A DNA stretch of 20,000 bases, from positions 51,298 through 71,297 of IMG/VR virus record IMGVR_UViG_3300009034_000021; one strand, 5' to 3'. Within the stretch, counting starts at the first letter, position 1. Every line of letters starts with the position of its first letter. A program made the translations under genes and the position numbers. The notes beneath the pieces are model-generated. The model was not told the origin of the DNA. It saw only the letters and a list, made by a program, of their open reading frames with translations, and made no database searches. Below, piece by piece: positions 4,135-15,250 of the stretch. The stretch is from an uncultured virus (IMG/VR IMGVR_UViG_3300009034_000021) (taxonomy: Duplodnaviria; Heunggongvirae; Uroviricota; Caudoviricetes).

Positions 4135-5494
4135 TTGATACTCTTTTCATGGTGATAGCGCAAGCCTTAGATTGTAAATCAAAACCAATCCAACTTCTAT
4201 TAGCTTCTATGGCTGCCTCAGCGGTCGTGCCGCTGCCGATAAAAGGGTCACAAACTATACCGTCCGGCGAACACGACGTTACAATTATTCGCTTAATGAG
4301 GTCAAGTGGCAGTTGGTTAGGCCAAGATGTTTTACTTTCGGAAACGTTCTTGACTAAGTTGTATTCCCACCAATCGTATGGGGTTGTTCCCTCTTTGCCC
4401 AGATGCGCAACCCTCTTATCATTGGGATTTTTGTAAGGTTGTAAGTCCGCTTCGCCTTCAAAGAAAGCAGGCTTGTTGCCTCGTATGTAATAAAGAATAG
4501 TTCTATGCGAACGTCGCCAATTATCATTGGTTTGCCCGGTGTTTGACGGGTAGACCCATGAAAGCCAACGCTGGAAAGTGAAAAGTCCGTCGAGTTGCTG
4601 TTTCCACTGTGCTGCTACCTCTGGGTAGTGCATCAGGTAAAACGCACCACCAGGTTTTAGAACGCGGTATGCTCCCCAGAACCAATGCACGCACCAAGAA
4701 AGATATTCGCTTTCTTCTTTTTTGTCCTTGAATCCCTCGCCGTAGTTCTTGCTTAGATTGTATGGTGGGTCAGCGAACACCAAATCAATGCTTGCCTCTG
4801 GCAGACCCATGAATCCTTCGAGGCAATCGACTTGATGAACTTTATTTAGTTCATAGACGCCAAGCGTGGGAATAGGTGGTGTCTTTGACTCGTCACTGGA
4901 AATTTCTTGATTTTCTTCCTCGTCGATTTTTTGTTTTTCTTCTTCGTCACTGTCGGCTTCTGCTTCTTCGGCTTTCTCAGTTTCTTGGATTTCTTTTTTG
5001 GGTCGTTCTATGGTGCGAGGATATTCTCTGCCATCCTTTCCGATAAAGATTTTAACGATTCTAATTTGAAGACGTTCCTCAAGTTTTCTTCTGATTCTTT
5101 TGACTGTATCCTGATGAACTCCTAAATCTACAGAAATCCAGTTATTAGTCCTTTCAAAATGCAGTTTCAGGAATTTTTCTATAACGCCTTGTCTCTCCTT
5201 GCGTGTGAGAGGCAGGCCATGTTTCAAATTGGCAAGCAAAGCGTACTCCTCGGCTTGCTCCAGAGTACCAAACCTGGCTTCAACTTCTATCTCCTCCAAC
5301 TTCAGAATCTCGGCAGCACGATAGCGATGCCAGCCATCTACTAACAAGTAATTACTTTTGTCTGGTATCTTAAAGACTACGATTGGTGGTAGTTGGTCAA
5401 AGCAATCTGCATAACCTTTCGCAATTTCAACATCGGTTTTAGTTCTTGGGCTTAGTTTACTATCTCTTTCAATCTGCTTCAATCTCAGCTTCAT
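4127..5494 (-). CDS. ParB/Srx-HTH fused to beta-class N6A/N4C DNA methyltransferase
   Basis: N-terminal LVDGWHRYRAA (ParB/Srx), HTH-like TNNWISVDLGVHQDTVKRIR, acidic linker; C-terminal IDLVFADPPYN (motif IV) before DPFIGSGTT (motif I). Confidence 0.92.
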   Translation of the reverse strand: MKLRLKQIERDSKLSPRTKTDVEIAKGYADCFDQLPPIVVFKIPDKSNYLLVDGWHRYRAAEILKLEEIEVEARFGTLEQAEEYALLANLKHGLPLTRKERQGVIEKFLKLHFERTNNWISVDLGVHQDTVKRIRRKLEERLQIRIVKIFIGKDGREYPRTIERPKKEIQETEKAEEAEADSDEEEKQKIDEEENQEISSDESKTPPIPTLGVYELNKVHQVDCLEGFMGLPEASIDLVFADPPYNLSKNYGEGFKDKKEESEYLSWCVHWFWGAYRVLKPGGAFYLMHYPEVAAQWKQQLDGLFTFQRWLSWVYPSNTGQTNDNWRRSHRTILYYIRGNKPAFFEGEADLQPYKNPNDKRVAHLGKEGTTPYDWWEYNLVKNVSESKTSWPNQLPLDLIKRIIVTSCSPDGIVCDPFIGSGTTAEAAIEANRSWIGFDLQSKACAITMKRVSIE

Positions 5495-5528
5495 TACAAT
5501 CTCCTAGTCTGTGTTGTGCTTCTCTTAG

Positions 5529-5607
5529 TTAATAGTTAATTAATTAATCACTAGATATATAGTCTTTGGCTCCTATATAATCAGGTTTCTAATTAATTAA
5601 CTATTAA
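5529..5607. repeat. AT-rich perfect 18-bp inverted repeat
   Basis: TTAATAGTTAATTAATTA (5529-5546) / TAATTAATTAACTATTAA (5590-5607), plus inner TATATAG (5556-5562)/CTATATA (5573-5579). Confidence 0.85.
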
Positions 5608-6172
5608 TTAACTTCCAGTAGCCGCGTCTCGCGTTGCCGGAATATCCTTTCCGGCTGGCTATATTTTTCATCAAATTCCAGTCGTCTTCACTGGTCACAA
5701 TGCCTTTGACTTCTGCTGCCTGTCTGATACTGTCCACTTCAACTTCCATGCCGCCGGCCAGTGTATAGCCGATCCAGTCCTCCATAACCTTGCTTTTTGC
5801 TCTGGGTGTGGGTAGCTGAAGCTGATAATTCTCAAGAAAGCTTTCGTGGTCTATCTCGTTTTCTTCACAGAACTGTTTGAATTCTTCTAGGGTGCTTTGT
5901 TCGTAGATGTACTCAAGTTGTCCCTTTTCAATGACTCTGGCTTGCTTCTCCAGCCATTTTCTAGATATTGCAAAAGCTCGTTTATCTATCTTGCCCTCTA
6001 ATTCTTTGGAGTTGGCAAGTAAATTCAAACCCTCCCTGAAGATGCGGTTTATTGCTTTTGTCCTGGAGTCTCCTAGTGCCGCCCAAACTTTGATGAATTT
6101 TTCATCAGTTGCAAGTACTTCTTCTGGGCCGCCTTTGATGTAAGCAGGATAGACACGCAGCATCTCGGCCAT
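5597..6172 (-). CDS. hypothetical protein (191 aa), possible C-terminal winged-helix DNA-binding domain
   Basis: Long ORF with SD AGGAG; C-terminus (VDSIRQAAEVKGI...RRGYWKL) looks wHTH-like by eye only. Confidence 0.75.
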   Translation of the reverse strand: MAEMLRVYPAYIKGGPEEVLATDEKFIKVWAALGDSRTKAINRIFREGLNLLANSKELEGKIDKRAFAISRKWLEKQARVIEKGQLEYIYEQSTLEEFKQFCEENEIDHESFLENYQLQLPTPRAKSKVMEDWIGYTLAGGMEVEVDSIRQAAEVKGIVTSEDDWNLMKNIASRKGYSGNARRGYWKLINS

Positions 6173-6193
6173 ACTAGTCTCCTAAAACGCAAA

Positions 6194-6332
6194 ACGTCTC
6201 TTGGTGACGGCCCCTCCGGTTGGCAAGAAGGGGGCTGGCGAACCCCTGACGAGAAAAGGGGTCGTCACCAAGAGACGTCTTTTAATAAAGTGAGTATTGT
6301 GCTGTGTTATCAATTTGCCAACCTTTCTCGTC
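6194..6332 (-). ncRNA. Three-stem structured leader with loop-to-upstream-target complementarity (C4/CI antisense-like), copy 1
   Basis: 16-bp perfect outer stem (6194-6209/6263-6278); two inner hairpins whose 9-nt loops (UUUCUCGUC, UUGCCAACC) are exactly complementary to the 18-nt target at 6315-6332; followed by UUUUG. Confidence 0.75.
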
Positions 6333-6402
6333 AATCTTATTTATTAAGCAACGGGTGCGCCATTCCCGCCGCCACGGGCCTGGGCCCGCCGAGGTTATTC
6401 TA

Positions 6403-6687
6403 TCACGAATCGCCTATCCTGTCAACCTGGCCGTCATACCCTGAGCTCGCCTGGTCTCTCACGACAATCGGCAGATATATGCTTAATCTCACCGGTGGCA
6501 TCAATGTTCTCACAGGCACAACCGTCACCGGAACCGTAGGCATCGCCGTAGGCCAAACTCTCGTCTCGCCTGTGGGCCAAGTTTTCGTCGGCCAAGGTGT
6601 GGGTTCGTTTGCTAACACATTGCTAAGACCTAAGATACACGTTACAAACGTAATTAACAACAGCAACCTAAATTTCTTACACAGCAT
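6403..6687 (-). CDS. Secreted Pro/Thr-rich protein with IYLPIVVR motif
   Basis: Signal peptide, (P/K)TWPT repeats, Chloroflexota-type YLPxxxR motif. Confidence 0.7.
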   Translation of the reverse strand: MLCKKFRLLLLITFVTCILGLSNVLANEPTPWPTKTWPTGETRVWPTAMPTVPVTVVPVRTLMPPVRLSIYLPIVVRDQASSGYDGQVDRIGDS

Positions 6688-6706
6688 TTTTATCCTCTAC
6701 TTAAAT

Positions 6707-6916
6707 TCAATCTAGTGCAGCCGCTTCGCCGAATTCCTTGACGAATTTCTCTACCATCTTGGTTAGCTCTGCATACGATACATCCTTGCTGTTGCGCGAA
6801 ACAGGAAAGTGAAAGTCCCAATCACAAAATGACGCCAGGATCGCGTTTAGGCTGCCCTTTGCGCGCTCCCATTCCATGTAGCGTGTTGCTAAAATTATCT
6901 GTCTGTTCGTCGTCAT
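6707..6916 (-). CDS. hypothetical protein (start refined to MTTNRQ)
   Basis: SD AAAGGA before ATG 6916. Confidence 0.65.
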   Translation of the reverse strand: MTTNRQIILATRYMEWERAKGSLNAILASFCDWDFHFPVSRNSKDVSYAELTKMVEKFVKEFGEAAALD

Positions 6917-7602: not shown

Positions 7603-7774
7603 GACTTAAAGCCGCCAGGCGGTCTGCAAGTTGGTAAAAATAGTGTTCGTACAGCACAATCGTTGCTTCGGATATCGTACCCTTTTCATTGCTTTCTAAT
7701 CTGTCAGCCAATGCATTGAAACTCAGTTGGCGCAGTCTGTCACTGGCCTCCAGGACGACGTTACTATTACTCAT
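7580..7774 (-). CDS. hypothetical protein (64 aa)
   Basis: ATGA-coupled ORF. Confidence 0.6.
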   Translation of the reverse strand: MSNSNVVLEASDRLRQLSFNALADRLESNEKGTISEATIVLYEHYFYQLADRLAALSHEENHVL

Positions 7775-8130
7775 GGCTTACCTTTTCCTCCCTGTGCCAT
7801 ACACGTTTCATTGTACTCCTCCGTAATATGACGTGATAGGTATGCTGCCTTCAACTCATCAGGATAGTTAGCATTAAACTCTTCTAATGAATATTCATCG
7901 CAATCTGTTTCAATAATTAAAATACGCCTAGCGCCGTAACAGTACGATTGCCATTCCTCGATCTCTGGATAATCTTCTCTCATTGCTCTATCAAGTTCTT
8001 CATCGCAACCCATTTTTATTGCACGATTGCAATCGCAGGCACCGTTACCTTCCGCCCACCAAAATGGCGAAAAACTTGAATCAAACATTCTTTTATTTCC
8101 TGTTTGTGTATCAAGTAATGTGACTTTCAT
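7771..8130 (-). CDS. hypothetical protein with W.EGN..CDCNR motif
   Basis: ORF track; start refined to ATG 8130 (SD GAAAGG); Cys-rich motif FWWAEGNGACDCNR. Confidence 0.7.
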   Translation of the reverse strand: MKVTLLDTQTGNKRMFDSSFSPFWWAEGNGACDCNRAIKMGCDEELDRAMREDYPEIEEWQSYCYGARRILIIETDCDEYSLEEFNANYPDELKAAYLSRHITEEYNETCMAQGGKGKP

Positions 8131-8148
8131 TTTGCCTTTCAAGGTTTC

Positions 8149-8190
8149 GTGTGTCCATTAGGCAGTTAATCCTCCTCCACGCCACCGCAG
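8149..8190 (-). repeat. 5' half of tRNA-like element (copy C); near-identical to 10479-10517
   Basis: 34 of 40 positions identical to the 5' part of copy B. Confidence 0.8.
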
Positions 8191-8291
8191 CCCATTTTGC
8201 TTTCCCAGACTACCGTCAAGCTGGCTATCCCACCCTTGCTTTACTCCAGCCCCGTGAGTATCCCGTCACGAGTAGTCCAGGAGTTTCTTGT

Positions 8292-8372
8292 TTAAGAAAC
8301 AGGGCTGAGGAGTAGAAGACCACAGCCAAGTACACATATTGTCAATAGCAGAAGTATTAGAAATGTTTTCAT
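8292..8372 (-). CDS. 26-aa hydrophobic peptide MKTFLILLLLTICVLGCGLLLLSPVS (or truncated secreted-protein gene)
   Basis: Manual translation; signal-peptide-like; weak SD. Confidence 0.4.
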   Translation of the reverse strand: MKTFLILLLLTICVLGCGLLLLSPVS

Positions 8373-8403
8373 TGAGCTTGCGCCTTCTAGTAATTATGTC
8401 AGA

Positions 8404-8518
8404 ACTGCGGGCCGGCTACCCCACCCTGCCGGCTCCCTTTCGCTACTCGTGAGATTATTCGCCAGGTCGGCAGTTCCTGGCGCGCCCACACCCTGGCGTC
8501 TGCCAACGCCACCGCAGT
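8404..8518 (-). ncRNA. tRNA-like structured element (copy A)
   Basis: 7-bp closing stem ACUGCGG/CCGCAGU, D-like arm GCGU-UGGCAG-ACGC, internal hairpin CGCCAGG/CCUGGCG, T-position arm GCCGGC/GCCGGC abutting the 3' strand. Confidence 0.65.
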
Positions 8519-8523
8519 CTGTC

Positions 8524-8733
8524 TCACTTTTTCTTGCTGCCAGTATCCTGCCGTGTTCCCAACACTTGCTCCACGGCTGACAAGGCTGTCAAAAAACCCT
8601 TCCTGAAGATGGCAACGCCAGGATGGTCAGGGAAATTATCCGCCAAGTCTTTGTTGGCTTTATCAATACCATTGAGCACACTTTGTATGTCTTCCCGTGA
8701 GTGAACTTCGGATCGAACCTTGGTCCGTTTCAT
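8524..8733 (-). CDS. hypothetical protein (69 aa)
   Basis: SD AAGGAG. Confidence 0.7.
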   Translation of the reverse strand: MKRTKVRSEVHSREDIQSVLNGIDKANKDLADNFPDHPGVAIFRKGFLTALSAVEQVLGTRQDTGSKKK

Positions 8734-8757
8734 GGCTGTCTTTCTCCTTTTCTAGTA

Positions 8758-9018
8758 TTATTTGAATGGGCAACTCTTGATGTACACGTCGGCAGAATCA
8801 ACGCCCCATTCTGTCACGGTCCCCGAGTGGCCCGAACACCCGTGCATCCGCAAGTCGGAGGGAGTGACCCACTCGTATCTATCGCAATAGAACCACGACT
8901 TGCGAATTTTGATGTGGTAGCACTTCTCTTGTGGGTCACCACATCCAAGTAGTAGGAATGCTAAAATTAAGATCAATAGCAAGATGAACCATGGAGAACG
9001 TAGAGTTTGCTTGGTCAT
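8758..9018 (-). CDS. Small Cys-rich lipoprotein
   Basis: Hydrophobic signal ending in lipobox LLGC; SD AAGGAG. Confidence 0.7.
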   Translation of the reverse strand: MTKQTLRSPWFILLLILILAFLLLGCGDPQEKCYHIKIRKSWFYCDRYEWVTPSDLRMHGCSGHSGTVTEWGVDSADVYIKSCPFK

Positions 9019-9029
9019 ATCATCTCCTT

Positions 9030-10334
9030 TCAGTTTATGGAGCCGCGGGCGGGCGGCGTCGGGGCAAGATCACCACAGCGGTCAATCTCGTAGCTGTCAA
9101 AGATATTGTCATCAGTATCTACTGCGTCCAGACGCAGCCGGCAGTCATCAATTTTTATCTCTAAGAAGTGATTGAGGTCGTCATTGAAAAAGAGTGTAAA
9201 CCAATCACCGAAGGCTGAGAGCAGAGGACCTCCGCCTCCGCCCGTGACATAATAAACTACACCTCCGTCCTGGAGGGTGGTGCAGGTGTTGTTGAGGATA
9301 GGACAGGTTCGCTCATAATGGTGATCGTGTCCATTGAAAACGACATCCACACTATAAGTTTCGAAGATTGGCACCAGGTGGGTCTGTATCTCACTCGTGC
9401 TGCCACTATGGCTGCCGGAACTGTAGGCTGGATGATGGAAGAGGACAAACTTCCAGGGCTGTGTGCTGGCTTGCAGATCGTTCACCAGCCAGTTGTACTG
9501 AGTGCTGCCGGTGCCATAGTCCTGGTTTGTGTCTAATGCCACAAAATGAGCGTTCCCCCAGTCGAAGGAATAGTACTCCTCTTTGTGGCCAAAAGGCGCA
9601 TTACCCGGCAGGTAGTAGACGTCAGTGTAGCCCTGGTATCCACAGCTACCGCCACCCAATTCATGGTTCCCCACGCTGGGATAGAAGGCGGTATCGCCCA
9701 TGATTTGCTGGTAAAGCTGAAAATAAGCCCAGGTATATTGATCCCATGAACTGTCGCTACCAGAGCAATTGCCGCCCTTGTCTACGATGTCGCCGGTATG
9801 AAGAGCCAGGTCAAAACTGTGTTGTTCTATCTCGGCCGCCATGTTCTGGGCACCTGGGCTTGGTGGCAAGCTGACATCATAAGGCCGGCTATCACCCAGG
9901 ACGACAAAGGCGAGCTGTGTTGCTGTGGAATCAGATGCGGTGGTAAAGGCGATCTCCGGCCAAGGCGTTACATCGTTATCATCAATGTGTACCCTGTAAT
10001 AATAAGTGGTCTCTGCCATCAGACCACTGATAGTGGCCGAGTGCCAATGCTTGCCATCGTAGGTGTTGCCAGTGGCGATGGCTACATTACTATAGCTTCG
10101 GTCGAGGCCGTAGTGTATTTTACCAGTCCCTATGTTTTCTGTGGCCCAAGAGATAACCACCGAAGTAGTGGTAGTTTCGCCGATGTACGGATGGACTAGC
10201 AGGCTAGATGAAATTGAATCTTGCTGTACTAAAGGCAAGAACGTTGAATATTCGAATTCGGATTCCTGAGCATAGATCAGAGTCACACATATCAGGACCC
10301 CAACTAATGATACAAACAGCAATATGTATTTCAT
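9030..10334 (-). CDS. Secreted FN3 + calcineurin-like metallophosphoesterase (purple-acid-phosphatase fold)
   Basis: Signal peptide; FN3-like (VVISWAT...ISGLMAETTYYYRV); motifs GDSR, HTGDIVD, GNHE, HHP, GHDHHYER. Confidence 0.92.
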   Translation of the reverse strand: MKYILLFVSLVGVLICVTLIYAQESEFEYSTFLPLVQQDSISSSLLVHPYIGETTTTSVVISWATENIGTGKIHYGLDRSYSNVAIATGNTYDGKHWHSATISGLMAETTYYYRVHIDDNDVTPWPEIAFTTASDSTATQLAFVVLGDSRPYDVSLPPSPGAQNMAAEIEQHSFDLALHTGDIVDKGGNCSGSDSSWDQYTWAYFQLYQQIMGDTAFYPSVGNHELGGGSCGYQGYTDVYYLPGNAPFGHKEEYYSFDWGNAHFVALDTNQDYGTGSTQYNWLVNDLQASTQPWKFVLFHHPAYSSGSHSGSTSEIQTHLVPIFETYSVDVVFNGHDHHYERTCPILNNTCTTLQDGGVVYYVTGGGGGPLLSAFGDWFTLFFNDDLNHFLEIKIDDCRLRLDAVDTDDNIFDSYEIDRCGDLAPTPPARGSIN

Positions 10335-10357
10335 TACTACTTCTTTCTATCAATCAA

Positions 10358-10519
10358 GACTGCGGGCAGGTCTCTCACCTGCTCCCACGTTGGCCCTTCG
10401 TGGCGTCATGGCCATGACGCCACCATGGGGTTTGACGGACAGCGCGAGGCATATCCGTAGTGGGTCTACCAGTCCAGCGTGTCCATTAAGCGGTTAATCC
10501 ACTCCGCGCCGCCGCAGTC
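10358..10519 (-). ncRNA. tRNA-like structured element (copy B)
   Basis: 8-bp closing stem GACUGCGG/CCGCAGUC; canonical 5-bp/7-nt T-arm geometry GCAGG-UGAGAGA-CCUGC; enlarged D-like, anticodon-like and variable regions; no CCA, no TTCG. Confidence 0.7.
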
Positions 10520-10523
10520 CTGT

Positions 10524-10868
10524 TTATCCTTGTTCTTCAACGCGCCCTCTTGCCCATCTGACCCACCGTTTGCGCTCCATCGGCTCCTCTTCTATGTCAA
10601 ATGAACAGAGCCAACAGAAAAGTATACCATCGATTTCTCTCGTCATTATGGGCCAATCCTCTTTGCATCGAGGACAAAAGCCTAAGTCAATTACCTCTGT
10701 CTCTGTCACAATATCCTCCATATTGTCGTAGTCCTGCTTATGTGGTCGGTGTACCGGTCGCCGCCAGCCCCACCTGCCGTACCACCCGTTACCGATCATC
10801 CAGTGGCTCAGGAATTGTGTCCATCCCGGACGACGCCACGTCAATTCGTGGCCTGGCTTGAACCACAC
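10524..10868 (-). CDS. hypothetical Trp-rich protein with CxxC pair
   Basis: CPRC...CWLC; 1-nt overlap with the HNH stop. Confidence 0.6.
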   Translation of the reverse strand: MWFKPGHELTWRRPGWTQFLSHWMIGNGWYGRWGWRRPVHRPHKQDYDNMEDIVTETEVIDLGFCPRCKEDWPIMTREIDGILFCWLCSFDIEEEPMERKRWVRWARGRVEEQG

Positions 10869-11407: not shown

Positions 11408-11414
11408 GACAAAA

Positions 11415-11551
11415 CGCCCCTATCATGGCTGCTAAGGTGTCAGACTAAGCAGGGCGATCCTTTCTCGACCGCACATGATAAGGGCGCTTCGTCCACAATA
11501 TTCATTGTGATCCTATAAAAACAAACCGCCCCTTTGTGCTTAGTCTGACAC
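11415..11551 (-). ncRNA. Three-stem structured leader with loop-to-upstream-target complementarity (C4/CI antisense-like), copy 2
   Basis: 13-bp outer stem (11415-11427/11474-11486, one G-U on minus strand) covering the HNH SD; two inner hairpins; 11437-11451 is perfectly complementary to 11537-11551 (15 bp); ends CGUUUUG like copy 1. Confidence 0.75.
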
Positions 11552-13020: not shown

Positions 13021-13143
13021 TTGTTGCCTCCATTGAATTCAATATGCTGGCAGGCGGGTTTCATTGAGCTGACTTCCTGACAGGGATGCTGGTTGGATTT
13101 GTACCCGCCTGCCAGTTACGAGCGGCGCAGGGCTTGATGCCTG

Positions 13144-14621: not shown

Positions 14622-14784
14622 TTTTCTTCTCCGTTTTGTCCAATAATGCATCCAGCGAAACCGATACAATAATATCATCCTTGACAACCTGCAACGAAAA
14701 GCCACCGTCCACCACAGTTTGCCAACTATGAATTTTAAGTCTGGTGGTTTCAACTACATTGTGTTCAGGCTCCTGGGTGTTCAT
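14611..14784 (-). CDS. 57-aa hypothetical protein
   Basis: Manual translation MNTQEPEHNVVETTRLKIHSW...; SD GAGGT. Confidence 0.6.
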   Translation of the reverse strand: MNTQEPEHNVVETTRLKIHSWQTVVDGGFSLQVVKDDIIVSVSLDALLDKTEKKNEH

Positions 14785-14795
14785 AACTACCTCAC

Positions 14796-14945
14796 TTAGT
14801 CGTACTCAAACCACTCATCAATATGAGTAATTTCGTCCCCATGCCCACAATCCCATTCGTTGTCACTTGGTCTGGGATTCTTTTCTACCTTGACGATCTC
14901 TCCGTCTACTACATCGGGATCTGGAAGTGCTTTGGGTGGTTTCAT
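14796..14945 (-). CDS. 49-aa acidic hypothetical protein
   Basis: Manual translation MKPPKALPDPDVVDGE...EWFEYD; SD AAGGAG. Confidence 0.6.
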   Translation of the reverse strand: MKPPKALPDPDVVDGEIVKVEKNPRPSDNEWDCGHGDEITHIDEWFEYD

Positions 14946-14969
14946 CTTAGTTGTCTCTCCTTGGTAACC

Positions 14970-15193
14970 AACACTCCCATCCAGCCTCGTCCATATCCCG
15001 GTCGGTGTCCCACTGCGTATCTCGGCGAGCGGCTGGGAGCAGCCAGTTTCGGTCTATGTATGTTTGGCTCAGTCCGGCTCCCGTGCACGACTCTGCCAGT
15101 GCGTTTTTACAACCTTCGCCCGTTCGCCGCCTCTCCGATTCGCACGGAGCGGTTTACGTGGCTAGCCGGTGAACGAGGCCAGACGGGAATGTT
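14970..15193 (-). ncRNA. ~224-nt intergenic structured RNA
   Basis: 21-bp uninterrupted closing stem with 4 G-U pairs on the minus strand only; nested stems 15077-15086/15142-15150 and 15041-15045/15065-15069. Confidence 0.65.
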
Positions 15194-15250
15194 GATTATG
15201 GAATTGTTAAAATCTGTCTAAAGTAAATTATTGCGCTAGCCTTCCTGTGT

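Follow-up and report, generated by a model that had tools for sequence, protein, structure and literature searches.

To our knowledge, few classes of phage non-coding RNA are known. The c4 antisense RNA of phages P1 and P7 and the CI RNA of phage P4 are phage small RNAs that RNase P cuts from longer transcripts through a tRNA-like fold, and both pair with close sites on the same transcript. In YrlA, the RNA ends form the stem bound by Ro60, and the tRNA-like part lies internally with canonical D and T loops. Within phage tRNA clusters, rnaC and rnaD of phage T4 are the only small RNAs we know of, and we are aware of no function found for them in fifty years. Published accounts describe them, as species 1 and 2 RNAs, as small and stable and with a role that is not known (PMC3014915, PMC9697503). 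YrlA and the other bacterial Y RNAs are described as non-coding RNAs of bacteria and phages with a tRNA-mimicking module (Chen et al. 2014, PMC4201824), and an engineered tRNA scaffold is described for recombinant RNA in E. coli (PMC3753655). Here, we analysed the final 20 kb (20,000 nucleotides, hereafter the window) of a 71,298-bp phage-type contig from an uncultured virus (IMG/VR IMGVR_UViG_3300009034_000021), in which an earlier note made from the letters alone had marked two complete tRNA-shaped elements that are not tRNAs, A and B, and the 5' part of a third, C. Our analysis places A and B as divergent members of a large phage RNA family absent from Rfam 15, and C as a broken copy. We consider it probable, with room for real doubt, that the family consists of tRNA-shaped phage RNAs which are excised by tRNA-processing enzymes and whose chassis protects a variable domain on display.

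Elements A, B and C and their phage relatives

The start CUGCGG(U/C)GGCG, which the earlier note had read on the minus strand in all three elements, is present as described: CTGCGGYGGCG occurs at exactly three sites in the window (8190, 8517 and 10517), all on the minus strand, and at zero further sites across the rest of the 71,298-bp contig. CCGCAG terminates both A and B directly after a hairpin at the T position, which in B has the 5-bp/7-nt geometry that had been noted, and counted with flanking bases the closing helix is one pair longer in B (9 bp) than in A (8 bp) (Table 1). The D-like arm is likewise present, two bases past the closing helix; A reaches its GCGU/ACGC hairpin over the linker UG and B its GCGC/ACGC hairpin over CG, and both D-loop sequences depart from the family consensus. 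The T-like stem is GCCGG(C)/(G)CCGGC in A and GCAGG/CCUGC in B, the latter a variant also found in Pseudomonas phage Persinger and in the loci L192 and L166. Between these arms, the middles are expanded and unrelated, without an anticodon-type loop or CCA. Compared with relatives such as L119 and Caulobacter phage DMCA, the D-like loop of B holds an extra 18-nt hairpin (AUUAA-CCGC-UUAAU). In A, the loop of an insert hairpin, AACUGCCGA, complements the short D-like loop over 5 nt (GGCAG/CUGCC, read directly from the sequence). The D-like hairpin of A is also a shortened look-alike of the 24-nt palindrome at 10400-10423 in the variable insert of B.

C proved to be a 43-nt copy of B that stops after the D-like arm. 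Its terminal helix is represented by the 5' strand only, followed by a D-like arm of the B type, inserted hairpin included; variable insert, T-like arm and 3' strand of the helix are missing. This stretch scored 49 in a Smith-Waterman comparison of B and C, against 16.1 ± 2.1 in dinucleotide shuffles, of which 0 in 1000 reached it. The similarity of A is marginal, being reached by 14 of 1000 shuffles in the comparison with B and by 12 of 1000 in that with C. The folding z-score is −3.9 for B, which alone folds clearly better than its shuffles; A reaches −1.1 and the C region −1.9. Because its significance within the window is marginal, the case for A rests on the family outside. The phage's own lineage gives no comparative signal, since the sole close IMG/VR relative is a 99.9% identical contig with one single-nucleotide polymorphism, at 10440 in the insert of B. 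Relatives of the capsid and DUF5131 genes offered common structural genes only or another gene order, and in them no element stood above the control.

The family became visible when a pattern taken from the shared ends of A and B (CTGCGGYGGCG, gap, GGGAGC, gap, CCGCAG) was run against IMG/VR in two scans, which returned 20 stretches other than the query. Six of these are clear relatives (L098, L103, L106, L113, L118 and L119), most of the rest being GC-rich coding DNA. The six have the same layout, extended similarity at their ends and compensatory T-position stems (GCCGG/CCGGC, GCUGG/CCAGC and GCAGG/CCUGC). BLAST searches from two of them against GenBank phages led to unannotated gaps in cultured phages: elements were read out in Synechococcus phage Ssp-JY40, DMCA and Persinger, and Komagataeibacter phage phiKX1, Pseudanabaena phage Pan3, Ochrobactrum phage POI1126 and the Pseudomonas phages Orimi01 and PotUPM1 were scored by a model (R1) whose seeds had been found through the A/B-derived pattern; Komagataeibacter phage phiKX2 was also among the BLAST matches. 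The 20-mer of the D arm alone occurs in at least 121 IMG/VR stretches. Applied to 80 fetched loci, R1 recovered 67 full-length elements in 64 loci, with lengths of 97-221 nt (median 136) and two copies in each of four contigs. A second model, R2, was built from elements picked by a D-arm motif that A and B lack, with A and B excluded from training. Run with filters off, R2 gave its best score in the window to B and its second best to A, both with unchanged ends, and the match after these had E=2 (all R2 E-values are rough, owing to a shortened calibration); no full-length R2 match covers C. A search of 151 Chloroflexota genomes with R2, a weak test, was negative. A metagenome scan with the motif shared by B and C gave one low-complexity match and one in contig L007 (= L006), 81% alike over 43 nt and on the strand opposite to a tRNA array, which we discarded as probably due to chance; L007 holds a true family member at another site.

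Throughout the family, the layout consists of a terminal helix (P1) of 8-9 bp, a CG linker, a D-like hairpin, an insert of 40-160 nt (the payload) and a 5-bp T-like hairpin flush with P1. The D-position hairpin is nearly constant, mostly GCGU-GGAAAGCAGAC-ACGC (family form GCGY/RCGC, 4 bp), and so is the T-position hairpin, mostly GCCGG-AGUAGCGC-CCGGC. P1 is free in sequence and near-perfect in pairing (96-99.8% across the family), with CUGCGG/CCGCAG in the window, GCAGUG/CACUGC in Persinger, AGAACGG/CCGUUCU in POI1126 and GCGCGG/CCGCGC in Pan3. The idea of an acceptor and elbow scaffold with variable payloads is borne out and extends to many phages. As for the conserved closing end of that scaffold, its pairing is kept, while its sequence is not: CUGCGG is a local variant, and both the length of P1 and the T-like loop differ from those of a tRNA.

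Covariation was assessed in 24 elements picked only by the D-arm motif and aligned with MAFFT without structure fitting. Standard pairs fill 97.9% of the proposed-pair cells in this set, as against 76.1% after column shuffles and 36-42% when the partner was slid by 1-3 columns, and changes on both sides occur in eight of nine P1 pairs and in four of five T-stem pairs. The stems therefore covary, as expected in the earlier note, with abundant compensatory changes in P1 and the T-like stem. The D stem gives no evidence either way, since selection of the set by the D-arm motif made it invariant. The outermost P1 pair is formed in 17 of the 24 elements and the next one in 23, which sets the helix at 8-9 bp and its stack with the T-like stem at 13-14 bp, compared with 12 in tRNA. 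When all 67 elements were aligned by fitting to the model, P1 was paired in 99.8% and the T stem in 99.4%, and G.U pairs are present on the gene strand. The loops are also associated: D loops with GG occur together with UCAAG T loops, as in tRNA, AGCAG D loops occur together with UAGCG T loops, and in L007 CUGAC stands opposite GUCAG. To judge by these sequences, the association suggests a loop-loop elbow.

Nothing in the searches gave the elements a name, in keeping with the earlier note, which could not assign them to any family. Neither the window nor the remaining 52 kb of the contig contains a tRNA or tmRNA gene by ARAGORN, and Rfam 15, which includes C4, YrlA and Proteo-phage-1, gave zero matches at gathering score in either. 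In E-value mode on 7900-10800, the only Rfam matches had E=5.1 and E=9.1, and the tRNA model had none at E≤10. The tRNA-like domain and tag frame of a tmRNA were called neither by ARAGORN nor by the Rfam tmRNA models, and at the element positions in 18 other loci Rfam had no match at E≤1. In other loci, ARAGORN and the Rfam tRNA model call the flanking tRNAs and never the elements. A riboswitch was rejected, the lone Rfam near-match on the C region being glycine-GGAnGA, whose 14.9 bits (E=5.1) fall far short of its gathering score, 110. The literature on tRNA-like phage RNAs contained no description of the family that we could find, and a full-text search with the 17-mer of the D arm, as DNA and as RNA, returned no paper. 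A 2023 catalogue lists 10,006 candidate viral RNAs (PMC10690425); the D-arm motif is absent from its six searchable supplementary files, and the family may be included among its unnamed entries.

Compared with tRNA (RF00005), the elements share a terminal helix formed by their ends, a flush 5-bp hairpin at the T position and a 4-bp hairpin at the D position after a 2-nt linker, and some copies take slots in phage tRNA arrays on the strand of the tRNAs. They differ in the hypervariable insert of 40-160 nt, which stands in place of an anticodon arm with its 7-nt loop, in the 8-9 bp of P1 instead of a 7-bp acceptor, in T-like loops that do not have the 7-nt form UUCRANY (mostly 8 nt, such as AGUAGCGC, with 7 nt, UGAGAGA, in B and 11 nt in A), and in the lack of an encoded CCA. 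The nearest natural analogues are rnaC and rnaD, whose genes directly follow tRNA genes within the T4 tRNA cluster, and rnaC, when folded, has paired ends and a T-type hairpin beside its 3' end. However, R2 found nothing below E=1 in the T4 rnaC/rnaD region, hence no homology by this model, the T loop of rnaC is the canonical UUCGAAU, and both RNAs are known only from T4-type phages. In contrast to YrlA, it is the ends of the phage elements that form an acceptor-like helix, and Rfam gave no match of the Y-RNA type. The engineered tRNA scaffold, as far as described, follows the same design, with foreign RNA at the anticodon-arm position of a tRNA body for processing and stabilisation by the cell; it is a laboratory construct on a real tRNA, whereas the family is natural and has D and T loops of its own that are not those of tRNA.

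In some records, among them those of two cultured phages, the GenBank annotation of a coding sequence spans the element (Orimi01, L127:1993-2466; PotUPM1, L125:2099-2431), and for Orimi01 it takes as start codon the AUG that opens the 5' strand of the terminal helix. AUG stands at the 5' end of 13 of the 67 elements, which is above chance, and a stop codon (TGA or TAG) in six. A coding role was rejected: open reading frames (ORFs) from the 5'-end AUG run for 11-78 codons, and 28 of the 67 elements have stops in all three frames. Two phage small-RNA genes stand side by side in locus L147, where a family member is preceded, at a distance of 210 nt, by a Proteo-phage-1 RNA (RF03044, 71.7 bits, L147:2699-2779).

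Table 1 Elements of the window and their parts (positions in the window; R2 E-values are rough and R1 scores for A and B partly circular, see text).
Feature	Position	Strand	Details
Element B, full-length family member, 164 nt	10357..10520	-	R2 26.1 bits, E 2.8e-4; R1 33.7 bits; minimum free energy z -3.87
B, P1 5' strand (GGACUGCGG), partner 10357-10365	10512..10520	-	9 pairs, outermost G.U
B, D-like arm	10477..10509	-	stem GCGC/ACGC with one C.A mismatch, marked in the model alignment
B, variable insert (payload), 94 nt	10383..10476	-	includes perfect 24-nt palindromic hairpin 10400-10423
B, T-like hairpin GCAGG-UGAGAGA-CCUGC	10366..10382	-	5 bp, 7-nt loop, flush with P1 3' strand
B, P1 3' strand (CCGCAGUCU)	10357..10365	-
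Element A, full-length family member, 119 nt	8402..8520	-	R2 22.8 bits, E 1.4e-3; R1 40.8 bits
A, D-like arm GCGU-UGGCAG-ACGC	8496..8509	-
A, variable insert (payload), 62 nt	8434..8495	-
A, T-like hairpin GCCGGC / 11-nt loop / GCCGGC	8411..8433	-	flush with P1 3' strand (8402-8410)
Element C, truncated 43-nt copy of B 5' part	8151..8193	-	36 matches in 43-column alignment with B
Candidate degenerate structure upstream of C	8200..8283	-	10-bp closing helix, two hairpins, three-way; weak similarity, E=9; not detected by R1 or R2

The last entry of Table 1 could represent a decayed fourth element; 13 of 14 nt agree between the loop of its second hairpin and the T-like loop of A.

Setting in the phage genome

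Structural genes occupy the plus strand of the phage and early and replication genes the minus strand (UvrD-type helicase, ThyX, ParB-methylase, HNH and DUF5131). A consensus sigma-70 promoter at 11583-11556 (minus) heads the long operon, and no terminator-like site lies ahead of the elements. All three are placed in this one early operon, between small accessory genes and a secreted phosphatase, and stand out from a background of about 48% GC with 63-67%. A and B each start 6 nt past a stop codon, that of ORF 8524-8733 for A and of ORF 10524-10868 for B, and B ends 24 nt ahead of the next start codon. Downstream of B follows a secreted purple-acid-phosphatase-like gene (9030-10334, minus), downstream of A a lipoprotein-like mini-ORF of 26 codons, and downstream of C the ORF 7771-8142.

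The phosphatase gene encodes a metallophosphatase with a signal peptide and the domains Metallophos and Pur_ac_phosph_N. Genes from metagenome-assembled genomes (MAGs) of Anaerolineae/Chloroflexota match it at 69-73% identity on the protein level and 75-79% on the DNA level, with unrelated flanks. By these similarities it looks like a host-derived accessory gene, and they suggest an Anaerolineae host for the phage. The possibility that a leader was acquired together with the phosphatase was rejected, as the flanks of the host homologues share no sequence and the lone CTGCGGCGGCG in L044 lies within a coding frame; the motif shared by B and C is missing from four Anaerolineae/Chloroflexota MAGs of candidate hosts.

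This arrangement bears on a reading at the level of DNA, in which the element is a mobile or recombination module whose conserved hairpins are landing or crossover sites that shuffle accessory cassettes, B and C being direct repeats around a cassette of 2.3 kb. The 5' part of B and C do form 43-nt direct repeats that flank the phosphatase, two small genes and A, and the phosphatase is host-derived while its flanks are not. Copies adjoin integrase genes in Persinger and DMCA, several phages have two copies, and elements of 98% and 91% identity lie between flanks without detectable homology (L135 versus L196/L158 and L155 versus L141). Among 11 pairs of elements with at least 80% identity, both flanks are unrelated in three and one flank in four, and such near-identical elements in unrelated flanks indicate that the element travels, or persists, as a unit. 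However, the compensatory changes in P1 together with G.U pairs on one strand point to selection on RNA, or on a single strand, and not on duplex DNA; Pfam finds no integrase in this phage, A and B are not flanked by a visible target-site duplication, and the neighbourhood of the element shows no recurrent recombinase or other protein (the largest cluster of neighbouring proteins covers 7 of 94 loci). We thus rate the DNA-level module as rather improbable, and it could also act alongside a role as RNA. Integron attC sites, miniature inverted-repeat transposable elements and ends of insertion sequences were rejected in particular, given a contig without integrase or transposase by Pfam, no target duplication and strand-specific covariation of the RNA type, and are kept as a minor rival only.

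Several further features of the contig were noted. An RNA ligase of the T4 Rnl1 type (PF09511, E 3.4e-16) is encoded at contig positions 47671-48708 (minus; L010:7671-8708), and the phage encodes no tRNA. In T4, this type of ligase mends tRNA that a host defence nuclease has cleaved, and its presence in a phage without tRNAs hints at a fight over tRNA. At 1450-2760 of the contig (plus; L008:1450-2760) lies the gene of a 436-aa IscB-like protein with RRXRR and HNH domains, with no adjoining HEARO/omega-RNA match in Rfam. An ORF of 871 aa at 4295-6910 of the contig (plus; L008:4295-6910) has a LAGLIDADG/Hom_end insert and is probably a gene of the packaging or portal region with an intein; a relative in L040 is 63% identical. 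In the window, the leader behind the consensus promoter (11408-11549, minus) has two U-rich hairpins and a pairing of GUGUCAGACUAAGCA with UGCUUAGUCUGACAC at long range over 15 bp, and may be a separate regulatory RNA or attenuator. Two more GC-rich intergenic stretches with long stems and without an Rfam match (14754-15250 and 13021-13143, minus) could be other structured RNAs.

Placement in other phages and competing explanations

In five phages, the element sits within an array of tRNA genes and on their strand. It lies between tRNA-Ile and tRNA-Met in L183 (spacers of 2 and 4 nt) and between tRNA-Thr and tRNA-Gly in L149 (the spacers of both phages falling within 2-11 nt), after tRNA-Met and 3 nt before tRNA-Gln in POI1126, 17 nt from tRNA-Pro in L007 and 116 nt after tRNA-Met in phiKX1. 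The tRNA-Met and tRNA-Gln genes of POI1126 (L126:1751-1825 and 2154-2227) are ARAGORN calls that are missing from the GenBank feature table. Among the IMG/VR loci that hold tRNAs, the element is on the tRNA strand in six of seven. Slots of this kind are the strongest hint to function at hand and favour processing by RNase P and RNase Z, as for a tRNA precursor, and of the functions offered in the earlier note it is this processing that the positions would favour.

Could the elements simply be tRNA genes that have decayed or that bear introns, with an anticodon arm destroyed by insertions? Their layout is tRNA-like, some copies stand in tRNA arrays, and in one sub-type a D loop with GG accompanies a T loop with UCAAG, which is also the case in tRNAs. 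Furthermore, the payloads of Pan3 (L124:1864-2028) and L102 (1498-1622) carry a canonical T arm of the tRNA type (GGGUUCAAAUCCC, GGGUUCGAUUCCC), like a nested piece of tRNA, without an ARAGORN call. Yet the tools that call the flanking tRNAs pass over the elements, P1 has 8-9 bp, and both arms, D-like and T-like, keep to non-tRNA sequences of their own across more than 60 phages while the acceptor-like helix is free, the reverse of an isoacceptor family and unlike neutral decay. We also know of no splicing system in bacteria for inserts of 40-160 nt, and decayed tRNA genes are, in our view, a highly improbable explanation.

A different and serious rival is that the elements act purely in cis as operon punctuation, namely as a folded intercistronic module that is cut or blocks exonucleases and so sets the stability or translation of the neighbouring cistron, the excised RNA being without function. 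The positions of A and B right behind stop codons, and of B shortly ahead of a start codon, fit this proposal. Most members lie 10-60 nt upstream of small ORFs on the same strand, and these downstream genes are mutually unrelated (a PHROG match in 10 of 62, over six named functions). With an AUG at the start of 13 of the 67 elements and a stop codon at that of six, P1 often overlaps gene boundaries. A cis-only role leaves unexplained the slots in tRNA arrays without an adjoining ORF, the Persinger copy, which follows the integrase gene and stands ahead of an intrinsic terminator of its own, and the near-identity of the D-like and T-like hairpins across bacterial phyla while P1 varies. On balance, we regard it as unlikely that cis punctuation is all there is.

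The copies in PotUPM1 and Orimi01 adjoin repressor genes in the immunity region, that in Ssp-JY40 lies between the terminase and portal genes. The first two would fit scaffolded antisense regulators in the manner of the c4 and CI RNAs, whose payload loops would pair with nearby sites on the same transcript; the payload of A, moreover, has a perfect complement of 10 nt located 170 nt downstream (8266-8275). Over 69 elements, however, the longest complement within ±3 kb of the own transcript was no better than in shuffles (p=0.18 for A and 0.79 for B), only 4 of the 69 reaching p≤0.05 against shuffled payloads, and the Rfam C4 model had no match. The suggestion of antisense RNAs directed at nearby sequence has accordingly gained no support, and we judge such regulators very unlikely.

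The reading that we prefer, an excised tRNA-shaped RNA with a protected variable domain, has to be weighed against a number of observations. The absent excess of complementarity just described counts against it, and so do the many positions upstream of small ORFs, which a cis-only role fits equally well. Any tRNA within 3 kb was found in only 7 of 64 IMG/VR loci. At 13-14 bp, the stacked arm exceeds the 12 bp by which RNase P and RNase Z gauge tRNAs, most T-like loops, at 8 nt, are without the tRNA T-loop sequence (11 nt in A), and CCA is not encoded in any element. A uniform helix like an anticodon stem, closing the payload, is present in 8 of 60 elements, which equals the shuffles, and the association of D and T loops may reflect only two clades, or two or three evolutionary events. 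As regards the window itself, the R1 scores of A and B are partly circular because its seeds came from the A/B-derived pattern, and their low scores on the family model together with their deviant D and T loops mean that A and B may be decaying copies.

A proposed excised RNA and its meaning

Why should two hairpins stay nearly the same in phages of different phyla? Their near-identity argues for one conserved partner. P1 stacks on the flush 5-bp T-like hairpin and so forms a tRNA-like top half, with the D-like hairpin two bases (CG) past the helix and the two hairpin loops probably in contact as an elbow, while an insert of 40-160 nt with a structure of its own replaces the anticodon arm in each copy. 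In the excision model we propose, this chassis would draw the tRNA-processing enzymes of the cell, with RNase P cutting on the 5' side and either RNase Z or a different 3' nuclease on the opposite one. The excised RNA would be shielded from exonucleases and persist as a stable small RNA displaying its variable domain, and as a by-product the message of the operon would be cut at the element. We infer that RNase P/Z excise the RNA, that it is stable and that its payload acts in trans. A more far-reaching version, which we offer tentatively and hold to be unlikely as it stands, sees a natural tRNA scaffold, common to phages of many bacterial phyla, whose near-invariant elbow is read by a universally conserved host factor, be it RNase P, the ribosome or a protein of defence that checks the shape of tRNAs, and whose hypervariable domain is exchanged like a cassette to provide decoy- or aptamer-like inhibitors of host tRNA-directed immunity or of the translation machinery. 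On this version, each phage would carry one or several custom RNA effectors that the host's tRNA-processing enzymes could excise from any transcript.

The family is far more widespread than rnaC and rnaD: one sub-type accounts for at least 121 IMG/VR stretches, and the hosts range from Proteobacteria to Cyanobacteria and probably include Chloroflexota. For annotation, the elements account for GC-rich 'empty' gaps in phage operons. Its occurrence in cultured phages, among them those of hosts that are harmless and simple to handle, such as Caulobacter and Komagataeibacter, opens the question to direct testing at the bench. If our proposal is true, the family would be a natural case of a design so far found only in the laboratory, in which a chosen RNA is grafted into a tRNA body for processing and protection.

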